In this document: positions 5,009 through 5,084 of the stretch, in pieces
Position numbering within the stretch: the first letter of the stretch is position 1
Layout: each line of letters begins with the position of its first letter
Virus record (IMG/VR): IMGVR_UViG_3300029219_000085
Coordinates: 1-6,046 of that record
Length of the DNA: 6,046 nucleotides
Source of the DNA: a virus
Strand: one strand, 5' to 3'
Made by a program: the position numbers and the translations under genes
The notes under the pieces: generated by a model
The model's input: only the letters and a program-made list of their open reading frames with translations
Told to the model about the DNA's origin: nothing
The model's database searches: none

Positions 5009-5084
5009 TGGTTGCAGGAGAAGGATTTGCACCATTCGACCTTCGGCTAATAAGACCGACGAGCTACTACTGCTCTATCCTGCT
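5009..5084 (-). tRNA. initiator-tRNA(fMet)-like tRNA with anticodon UAU (5052..5050) and encoded CCA
   Basis: The minus strand folds by hand as AGCAGGA UA GAGC AGUAGUA GCUC G UCGGU CUUAUUA GCCGA AGGUC GAA(U)GG UGCAAAU CCUUC UCCUGCA A CCA. The acceptor stem has 6 bp plus an A1:A72 mismatch. The D stem is 4 bp, the anticodon stem 5 bp and the T stem 5 bp with one bulged U. Long identical blocks match E. coli and B. subtilis tRNA-fMet as I recall them: GAGCAG, GUAGCUCGUCGG, CCGAAGGUCG, CAAAUCC and GCAACCA. Deviations are a 7-nt D loop without GG, G55 in the T loop, and U37. Confidence 0.75.

Follow-up and report, generated by a model that had tools for sequence, protein, structure and literature searches.

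The 6,046-nt stretch of viral DNA analysed here (IMG/VR record IMGVR_UViG_3300029219_000085, positions 1 to 6,046), hereafter called the window, carries on its minus strand a 76-nt initiator-type tRNA gene with the anticodon UAU instead of CAU. The tRNA is most probably (probability about 0.85) an AUA-reading initiator serving AUA start codons, and with the same confidence it appears to be functional and derived from a phage tRNA-fMet, in which CAU would have given way to UAU in the anticodon and A to U at position 37. The initial annotation of the window had proposed an AUA-specific initiator, and this proposal is supported by ATA starts placed behind Shine-Dalgarno (SD) sequences, an upstream extension of the portal gene, swaps of ATA and ATG between related starts, the co-occurrence of such starts with the tRNA, covariation within the tRNA and an initiator covariance model, R1.

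Structure, conservation and initiator identity of the tRNA

5009–5084, minus strand: initiator-type tRNA gene, 76 nt, identified by ARAGORN, Rfam, the initiator covariance model R1 and covariation

The tRNA is the sole ARAGORN call in the window (tRNA-Ile(tat), 5009–5084, minus strand) and matches Rfam RF00005 over its full length (49.1 bits, E=1.7e-8, gathering score 29); both of these checks, suggested in the initial annotation, detect it. ARAGORN misses most variants of the family, and lack of a call is not evidence of absence. The sequence given in the initial annotation agrees exactly with the letters of the window, with the 5' half AGCAGGA UA GAGC AGUAGUA GCUC G UCGGU CUUAUUA GCCGA and the 3' half AGGUC GAA(U)GG UGCAAAU CCUUC UCCUGCA ACCA. 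All of the features listed there were found, namely the A1xA72 mismatch (positions 5084 and 5013, with no Watson-Crick pair 1:72), the pairs G2:C71, C3:G70, A11:U24, G29:C41, G30:C40 and U31.G39, the discriminator A73 and the loop CUUAUUA, in which the anticodon UAU lies at 5052–5050 and U37 at 5049. CCA is encoded at 5011–5009. The CAU anticodon in the loop CUCAUAA is absent, and all copies of the tRNA have CUUAUUA, with U34 and U37. Among the traits of an elongator tRNA-Ile, the AUA-reading anticodon is present and the paired 1:72, Y11:R24 and A37 are not. At 7 nt, the D loop (AGUAGUA) is short and lacks the usual GG, the T stem has one bulged nucleotide, and the T loop, UGCAAAU, has G where U55 is normal. 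The single-sequence fold is modestly above shuffles (minimum free energy, MFE, z=-1.6), and the single sequence thus does not settle the function of the tRNA.

Pattern scans and contig look-ups yielded 53 copies of the tRNA, representing 13 sequence variants in three lineages, and four further tRNA-bearing lineages were recovered via relatives of the portal protein. The search of related phages for tRNA-fMet-like genes with anticodons other than CAU, recommended in the initial annotation, thus found the CUUAUUA tRNA in seven lineages. The tRNA is identical at 76/76 or 75/76 positions in contigs with flanks 89–94% identical to the window, a conservation so far above that of the flanks that chance or decay is ruled out. 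The lineage of the window has two types of anticodon arm, type A (the window; G26 UCGGU...GCCGA) and the majority type B (A26 CUAGU...GCUAG), which differ by three fully compensated pair swaps, the loop and the rest of the tRNA being unchanged. In an alignment of 14 distinct UAU tRNA sequences from the seven lineages (A4), the stems are 95–100% paired and 14 of the 20 stem pairs have changes on both sides, with the shuffled and slid controls nowhere near this covariation. The only invariant pairs are G2:C71, C3:G70, A11:U24 and G30:C40; pairs 4:69 to 7:66 covary and the other D-stem pairs vary. A73 is invariant (14/14), and position 1:72 is unpaired in 13 of the 14 sequences, with A72 opposite A, C or G (A:A, C:A, G:A). 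The covariation and the paired stems argue that the tRNA is a selected RNA structure and not a pseudogene.

The elbow is fully canonical in four UAU lineages. A non-canonical elbow is also found in a set of phage CAU initiator-like tRNAs (L029 1575–1649, L025 7–82, L055 13509–13579 and 8598–8673, L076 96–171, L043 and L099), in which the D loop is AGUAGUA or AGCAGUA without GG, the T loop is UGCAAAU or UGCAAUU with G55, the T stem is sometimes bulged, and A1xG72 occurs. This set suggests a phage-specific initiator subtype. Since bona fide CAU initiators of other phages have this odd elbow too, and four UAU lineages have the canonical form, the elbow of the window tRNA is best read as a lineage trait and not as decay. 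When metagenome contigs of the JGI were scanned for the canonical-elbow form, one chance match only was obtained.

A decaying tRNA-fMet pseudogene or an attachment-site remnant, with the ATA 'starts' being weakly read by the host tRNA-fMet or being annotation artefacts, would be in keeping with the bulged T stem, the G55 for U55, the short D loop and the pyrimidine at position 37, as well as with the variants missed by ARAGORN and the MFE z of only -1.6; sporadic C34-to-T copies of host tRNA-fMet do occur in scattered bacterial genomes. This explanation is nevertheless extremely improbable. The cloverleaf is complete, its conservation is far above the flanks, and its pairs are compensated as described; the gene encodes CCA, is followed by a terminator, occupies the same position in seven lineages and lies far (about 10 kb) from the integrase, while the odd elbow also occurs in bona fide CAU initiators, and four lineages have a canonical one. 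An AUA start is about 100-fold weaker, and major capsid and portal genes would hardly depend on so much weaker a start.

A scan of genome contigs for an initiator body with TAT gave only nine matches, all of them sporadic C34-to-T copies of a host tRNA-fMet or 3' fragments of one, from unrelated phyla, and the window's own tRNA was not among them. The chromosomal copies include L129 6399–6472 (adjoining a CAU copy), L132 4492–4568, L133, L134 and L135, and 3'-half fragments occur in L127, L128 and L131; the sources are Gemmatimonadales, an Arsenophonus endosymbiont, Pseudomonas, Dehalococcoidia and Calditrichaeota.

The resemblance to tRNA-fMet noted in the initial annotation was borne out by similarity searches and by R1. 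In a distant blastn search of all complete E. coli genomes, only tRNA-Met genes were matched (77.9% identity, median of 4 places per genome); the one locus inspected has three tandem genes between mltA and amiC and is metZWV. In GenBank phage records, too, only tRNA-Met genes were matched, one of which adjoins rimP (a metY-type position). Among 356 tRNAs in the fetched loci, the mean identity was 78% to the 118 initiator-like tRNAs and 49% to the 238 others. R1 was built from 43 CAU initiators, and since these were picked with a pattern including the anticodon arm, its scores favour type A: true initiators scored 82–99 bits, the window tRNA 72.4 and about 45 elongators at most 55.8. The remaining UAU tRNAs scored 80.2 (L181), 67.7 (L182), 66.9 (L193), 61–64 (type B variants) and 57.9 bits (L194). 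Whether a covariance model would place the tRNA with pseudogenes or elongators had been raised in the initial annotation; R1 placed every UAU tRNA (57.9–80.2 bits) above every elongator tested.

G2:C71, C3:G70 and A11:U24 are the classical formyltransferase determinants. Of the feature consisting of three G:C pairs in the anticodon stem, G30:C40 alone is the essential part in E. coli, and natural initiators with au/GC/GC, GC/GC/gu and au/GC/gu exist (PMC5389676). The pairs that are invariant among the UAU tRNAs are thus the formylase determinants and the essential P-site pair, which supports the initiator identity.

Some other initiator-like tRNAs were encountered in the searches. A body of this kind with a UUU (Lys) anticodon occurs in other gut phages (L136 12370–12443, L137 1366–1439, L138 2154–2227), with a GAGC/GCUC D stem, a UCGG..CCGA arm, AGGUC and UUCAAAU, and with a restored U1:A72 pair; it looks like an initiator remoulded into an elongator, and no AAA-start signal was seen in these three loci. 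Such a conversion has not taken place in the UAU tRNA. An independent initiator-like tRNA(UAU) is found at L004 9633–9709, on a GC-rich (62%) viral contig of 62 kb, with G1:U72, A37, G29:C41, G30:C40 and C31:G39; no ATA starts with an SD were seen in the 9.7 kb covered. In the first metZWV copy of E. coli 14EC017 (L195 600–676), the D loop reads AGCCTAGTA in place of AGCCUGGUA (a G19-to-A change), a strain variant or an error that is irrelevant to the finding.

AUA start codons in the window and in the phage family

4209–4598, minus strand: TerS gene with an ATA start at 4598–4596 or, more likely, 4595–4593; SD AAAGGGGA at 4610–4603
1484–2887, minus strand: portal gene, 467 aa, with an ATA start at 2887–2885; SD AAGGAGGT at 2900–2893, dG -12.4
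5434–5628, minus strand: coiled-coil open reading frame (ORF), 64 aa, with an ATA start at 5628–5626; SD AGGAGGTG at 5642–5635
1385–1487, minus strand: 5' end of the post-portal gene, (M)ATTYFPFVSRN..., with an ATA start at 1487–1485 that overlaps the portal stop (ATAG)

The codon cognate to the tRNA is found behind SD sequences at the 5' ends of genes in the window. The portal ATA lies one codon past the TerL stop, and the open frame reaches 32 codons beyond the start given in public calls, TTG 2794, in the upstream direction; that start gives a protein of 436 aa (P0001, in a cluster of 1406 sequences), short by 31 aa. The 31-codon extension (...YLNERGYYVDTNAIEIIELCNKWYTNTE) contains no ATG, GTG or TTG. 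Portal relatives with ATG starts, 450–468 aa in length, align with it upstream of the TTG, and the portal coding region therefore extends upstream of every canonical start. The TerS frame stays open over the 25 codons that precede its first canonical start (TTG 4535, which has no SD), and the 5' region reads tag AAA GGG GAT GTA ATA ATA GCG AAT GGA AAA GTT GGA AGA CCT, giving (M)ANGKVGRPNK. In the coiled-coil ORF, a spacer of 8 nt is followed by ATA GAA ATG, the next ATG (5622) being 14 nt from the SD.

The post-portal frame of the window is broken after 34 codons by a 14-nt deletion (relative to L003, L142, L150 and L005), and the ORF is intact in the relatives, with 253–269 codons. The deletion puts an out-of-frame ATG (1432) in frame with the rest of the post-portal protein, and may be due to misassembly, mark a defective copy or yield a truncated version with an ATG start. 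Out-of-frame pairs of ATG and stop codon are also present on the minus strand, ATGTAA at 4598–4603 after the TerS SD, overlapping the ATA ATA start, and ATGTAG at 2809–2815, 70 nt inside the 5' region of the portal gene; these are possibly due to chance. Elsewhere, TerS is annotated publicly with 46 aa or with a start at an upstream ATG that lacks an SD, and the post-portal protein is 92 aa too short (for example L150 4768–4908 and L142 15520–16038).

Across the phage family, ATA starts with an SD occur in about 16 gene families, including the portal, TerS types 1 and 3, the post-portal protein, a 243-aa early protein, a RusA-like protein and the probable major capsid protein. ATA was the start in all members counted of TerS type 1 (7/7) and type 3 (17/17), the portal (27/27), the coiled-coil ORF (43/43) and the post-portal gene (26/26). 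At sites with a strong SD on the coding strand, 317 canonical starts were found against 170 ATA codons behind an SD with no canonical start (orphan-SD ATA) in the phage family. In a control set of 118 unrelated phage loci (944 kb), the corresponding numbers were 437 and 10, and in the 39 of those loci with a GC content below 40%, 95 and 1. Orthologous starts can also be compared directly: TerS type 2 begins ATG GCG AAC and type 1, the type in the window, ATA GCG AAT; the N-termini AIEYLD and KNQTIK follow ATA in 11 and 5 cases and ATG in 2 and 1, respectively; and tape-measure proteins with the N-terminus ADGTL(L/I/K)F(E/D)TK have ATA before it in four lineages with the tRNA and ATG in two lineages without it. 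The lysogeny genes examined keep canonical starts.

The tRNA with the CUUAUUA loop and the ATA starts occur together in 7/7 lineages and are both absent in 3/3 related lineages, the portal relatives compared being 53–63% identical. L181, L182, L193, L194, L196 and L197 have the tRNA in the same genomic position, and ATA starts with an SD for the portal, capsid, tape-measure and/or TerS genes. L183, L184 and L185 have neither a CUUAUUA tRNA nor, with the exception of one L183 gene, credible ATA starts, and their portal genes begin at ATG with strong SDs; L185 carries a conventional phage tRNA-fMet(CAU) at 7652–7725 and shows no ATA-start signal. The signal is thus enriched with the tRNA and absent without it, as for code-altering tRNAs, an analogy and not a membership, as a start and not a stop codon is concerned.

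U37 is invariant across the UAU tRNAs, and a pyrimidine at this position is very unusual for any tRNA. Position -1 of the mRNA is A in 39 of 42 distinct ATA starts and in 75 of 153 ATG starts of the same phages (Fisher p=9e-8), and no such enrichment of A was seen at position -2. In E. coli, nucleotide 37 of tRNA-fMet has been found by high-throughput analysis to pair with position -1 of the mRNA, where an A37U initiator favours the complementary base, A (PMC10018350). A four-base interaction between A-AUA of the mRNA and UAU-U37 of the tRNA is thus very probable. On the simplest reading, the fourth pair would strengthen a codon-anticodon helix composed wholly of A and U, and would be a phenomenon of the P site, specific to initiation.

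The tRNA could instead be an ordinary elongator tRNA-Ile(UAU), remoulded from tRNA-fMet by mutation of the anticodon and helping to read AUA codons inside genes. Its ARAGORN label is Ile(tat), AUA accounts for 30 of the 136 Ile codons in the ORFs of the window and 15 of 28 in TerL, and the Lys(UUU) tRNAs of L136–138 show that remoulding of an initiator body occurs in phages. We consider an elongator very unlikely, however, as 1:72 is unpaired in all but one of the variants, with three different bases opposite A72, whereas the remoulded Lys tRNAs have restored this pair. The invariant U37 excludes t6A37, R11:Y24 is present instead of Y11:R24, and invariance is confined to the formylase and P-site determinant pairs. 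An elongator would also leave unexplained the ATA starts behind SDs, their co-occurrence with the tRNA and the bias to A at -1. Compensation of codon usage across the coding sequences was considered as an argument and judged insufficient.

Genomic setting and transcription unit

5111–5437, minus strand: regulator with sigma-70 region-4-like/DUF722 (ArpU-type) similarity and an ATG start, from a weak Pfam hit, names in source records and synteny
5102–5124, minus strand: perfect 7-bp hairpin TGCTCAC-AAT-GTGAGCA followed by TTTTTT, from the sequence (the scan gives a palindrome at 5108–5124)
5091–5099, minus strand: TGTAATAAT, an extended -10-like motif read from the sequence, ending 6 nt before A1 of the tRNA
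4934–5002, minus strand: long trailer hairpin of 11+3 bp with a loop of about 30 nt (fold z=-3.3)
4900–4926, minus strand: intrinsic terminator ACCGAGCATTTGTCTCGGT with a T tract, from the terminator scan, which closes the tRNA transcription unit

All genes of the window are on the minus strand, in the order SSB C-terminus, coiled-coil ORF, sigma-r4/DUF722-like regulator, tRNA, DUF6275 gene, TerS, TerL, portal and head genes. Homologues of the regulator are named 'specialized sigma subunit' and DUF722 in the source records, and the tRNA starts 27 nt past the regulator stop in every member of the family. The hairpin at 5102–5124, which covers the regulator stop codon (5113–5111) just upstream of the tRNA, looks like a terminator. 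TGTAATAAT is possibly the tRNA's own promoter; it was not flagged by the promoter scan (there is no -35) and is not conserved in lineages L181 and L182. Formation of the 5' end of the tRNA directly by transcription initiation from TGTAATAAT, 6 nt upstream, was considered and is unsupported in the other lineages.

The trailer hairpin lies between the CCA of the tRNA and the terminator. None of 200 shuffles folded equally well, and the hairpin covaries in relatives (AAAGTTTATC/GATAGACTTT to AAAGCCTATC/GATAGGCTTT). It may serve as a signal for processing, as a site of protein binding or as a small RNA. In L143 and L145, unrelated sequence takes its place.

The regulator protein was found on many contigs from human-gut metagenomes, of at most 50 kb, which bear an integrase and a cI-like repressor, and on this basis the family is taken to consist of temperate siphophages of roughly 33–40 kb. 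Holdemanella sp. is the recorded source of a portal protein in the same 90% cluster, and a more distant relative, L193, is a prophage of the isolate Amedibacillus sp. YH-ame6, located on contig JBSPEZ010000008.1 of GCA_053848845.1 and with its tRNA at 7861–7936, so that Erysipelotrichaceae (Holdemanella, Amedibacillus) are the likely hosts. A megablast search of GenBank phages with the whole window gave no match, nor did a tblastn search of phages with the sigma-like protein.

Several members have variable cargo between the tRNA and the terminase genes, comprising genes for 7-deazaguanine DNA modification (DpdA-like TAGT, QueC, QueT) and ParB_N genes. TAGT is found in L141 (11130–11897), L148 and L184 (5564–6286), QueC/QueT in L143/L145 (12177–13854) and QueT in L197 (4952–5422). 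An artefact of 7-deazaguanine modification was considered as the source of the ATA codons and rejected: ATG starts are abundant in the same genomes, the modification genes are present in only some members, many independent assemblies agree, and the anticodon of the tRNA matches.

Proposed mechanism, known systems and significance

The tRNA would be transcribed as a short unit which ends at its own terminator, seen in the sequence, and begins at a putative promoter. A host synthetase would charge it, most likely with Ile by isoleucyl-tRNA synthetase (IleRS) and possibly with Met. Ile is favoured because the anticodon dominates recognition by IleRS and the IleRS of Firmicutes accepts UAU (PMC3919564). 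The unpaired 1:72 and the retained G2:C71, C3:G70 and A11:U24 suggest that the host formyltransferase would formylate the tRNA. Initiation factor 2 would then load it into the P site of the 30S subunit, where G30:C40 would take it past the checkpoint of initiation factor 3 (IF3). The codon-anticodon pairing, which is fully Watson-Crick, would also let it pass IF3, and translation would start at AUA, with U37 pairing with the A before the codon, as the statistics of position -1 suggest. An engineered tRNAini(UAU) initiates at AUA in vitro at least as well as the AUG/CAU combination, and is accepted by IF3 (PMC10158994). In the phage genomes, about 15–50% of the well-signalled starts have shifted from AUG to AUA, among them those of the TerS, portal, major capsid and tape-measure genes and of some early genes, and efficient synthesis of the ATA-start proteins should depend on the phage tRNA.

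We lean, with some reserve, towards a wider proposal based on these sequence patterns, in which gut prophages run a private, orthogonal start system. The UAU/U37 initiator would read A-AUA, which the host initiator would handle poorly, replication, packaging and head and tail genes would be translated efficiently only with the tRNA, and the proteins would probably begin with formyl-isoleucine.

Several observations weigh against an AUA-reading initiator. The elbow in the lineage of the window is non-canonical (short D loop, G55, bulged T stem). The canonical three G:C pairs 29:41, 30:40 and 31:39 are not kept, the window having G:C, G:C and U.G. Type B, the commonest variant, keeps only G30:C40, and it shares with L182, L193 and L194 the combination A:U, G:C, U.G. 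L194 has a Watson-Crick A1:U72, albeit a weak pair, and the lowest score of the initiator model (57.9 bits). The tRNA is not an ideal substrate for MetRS or for IleRS: U34 is bad for MetRS, and U37 precludes t6A37, which is an IleRS determinant in E. coli. L183, which lacks the tRNA, seems to have an orphan ATA-start gene, RusA-like (848; (M)TFTIHGRLDGL), with a good SD; recombination may account for this start, or the tRNA may lie outside the 21 kb fetched. Finally, some of the ATA-start genes are early ones that lie upstream of the tRNA gene, and a simple 'late gene switch' fits poorly.

A role in anti-defence would give the altered loop another meaning. The tRNA would be a nuclease-resistant replacement initiator which escapes a host toxin that cleaves tRNA-fMet (e.g. 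of the VapC type), and phage translation would continue at AUA, and at AUG by U.G wobble. The loop departs from the host type at positions 34 and 37, neither of which varies, and the anticodon stem has been wholly rewritten between types A and B with nothing else changed. Evasion of host anticodon nucleases by phage tRNAs with an altered anticodon loop has been documented (PMC10264068), and IF3 tolerates the AUG/UAU wobble (PMC10158994). The loci examined yielded no defence or toxin gene, however, and this role by itself leaves the shift of many genes to ATA and the enrichment of A at -1 unexplained. As the main role of the tRNA it is very unlikely; it is compatible with an AUA-reading initiator and does not exclude one.

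Five known systems may be compared with the phage tRNA. Schulman and RajBhandary reportedly worked with engineered anticodon mutants of E. coli tRNA-fMet. In such mutants, as proposed here, an initiator body with an anticodon other than CAU starts translation at the complementary codon, and AUA/UAU passes IF3; the amino acid follows the anticodon, and formylation relies on 1:72, 2:71, 3:70 and 11:24. Engineered initiators with NNN anticodons (tRNAini) have also been described (PMC10158994; PMC11744186). Whereas these are laboratory constructs, the phage tRNA is natural, conserved over at least seven lineages and coupled to genome-wide AUA starts, and it differs further in having an additional change of A37 to U that is matched by A at mRNA position -1. 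The conventional phage tRNA-fMet(CAU) (L185, the jumbo phage L029, L025/L055 and L076) has the same body, and in L029, L025/L055 and L076 also the same odd elbow (D loop AGUAGUA, T loop UGCAAAU/UGCAAUU, bulged T stem). It probably represents the ancestral state and differs from the UAU tRNA in having CAU, A37 and three G:C pairs, and no genomic ATA-start signal, on the basis of L185.

The mitochondrial tRNA-Met (f5C34) reads AUA as well as AUG in initiation, and thus resembles the phage tRNA in starting at AUA through a tRNA adapted at position 34. Mitochondria, however, have a single tRNA for initiation and elongation, a modified C34 and an organelle-wide code, whereas the phage tRNA, whose U34 is encoded in the genome, would be a dedicated second initiator that a virus adds to the normal system of its host. 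Stop-codon recoding in Lak and crAss-like phages with suppressor tRNAs, reportedly described by Borges and co-workers in 2022, likewise has a phage tRNA that alters codon reading, a subset of genes that depends on it and misannotation by gene callers; there a stop codon is reassigned in elongation, whereas the UAU tRNA would add a start codon in initiation. In Mycoplasma mobile and in suppressors of a tilS deletion in B. subtilis, an elongator tRNA-Ile(UAU) reads AUA (PMC3919564). These tRNAs resemble the phage tRNA in that UAU reads AUA, and they show that a Firmicute IleRS can charge a UAU tRNA; unlike it, they are built as elongators (paired 1:72, A37) and work in the A site.

All natural initiator tRNAs described so far have, to our knowledge, the anticodon CAU. 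Full-text searches of the literature, which were not exhaustive, found no description of a natural non-CAU initiator tRNA or of AUA-start phages with a matching tRNA. The tRNA thus belongs to a known class, that of the initiator tRNAs, with no natural precedent found for its anticodon. If an AUA-reading initiator is confirmed, it would be the first natural one with an anticodon other than CAU, linked to dozens of start codons that match it, a natural test case for the pairing of tRNA position 37 with mRNA position -1 and for the minimal requirement of G30:C40, and, together with A-AUA, a ready-made orthogonal initiation pair of a kind now being engineered, for use in synthetic biology and phage biocontainment. 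In practice, the public annotations of an abundant group of human-gut phages are systematically wrong, with the portal, TerS, capsid, tape-measure and post-portal genes truncated or missed, and gene finders need to admit ATA as a start whenever such a tRNA is present. For the phages themselves, the shift may reflect near-neutral drift from ATG to ATA in an AT-rich genome, or it may lock the lytic programme at the level of translation or help the phage to evade defences directed at the initiator tRNA. A virus would then be able to reassign or extend a start codon, as viruses do stop codons.

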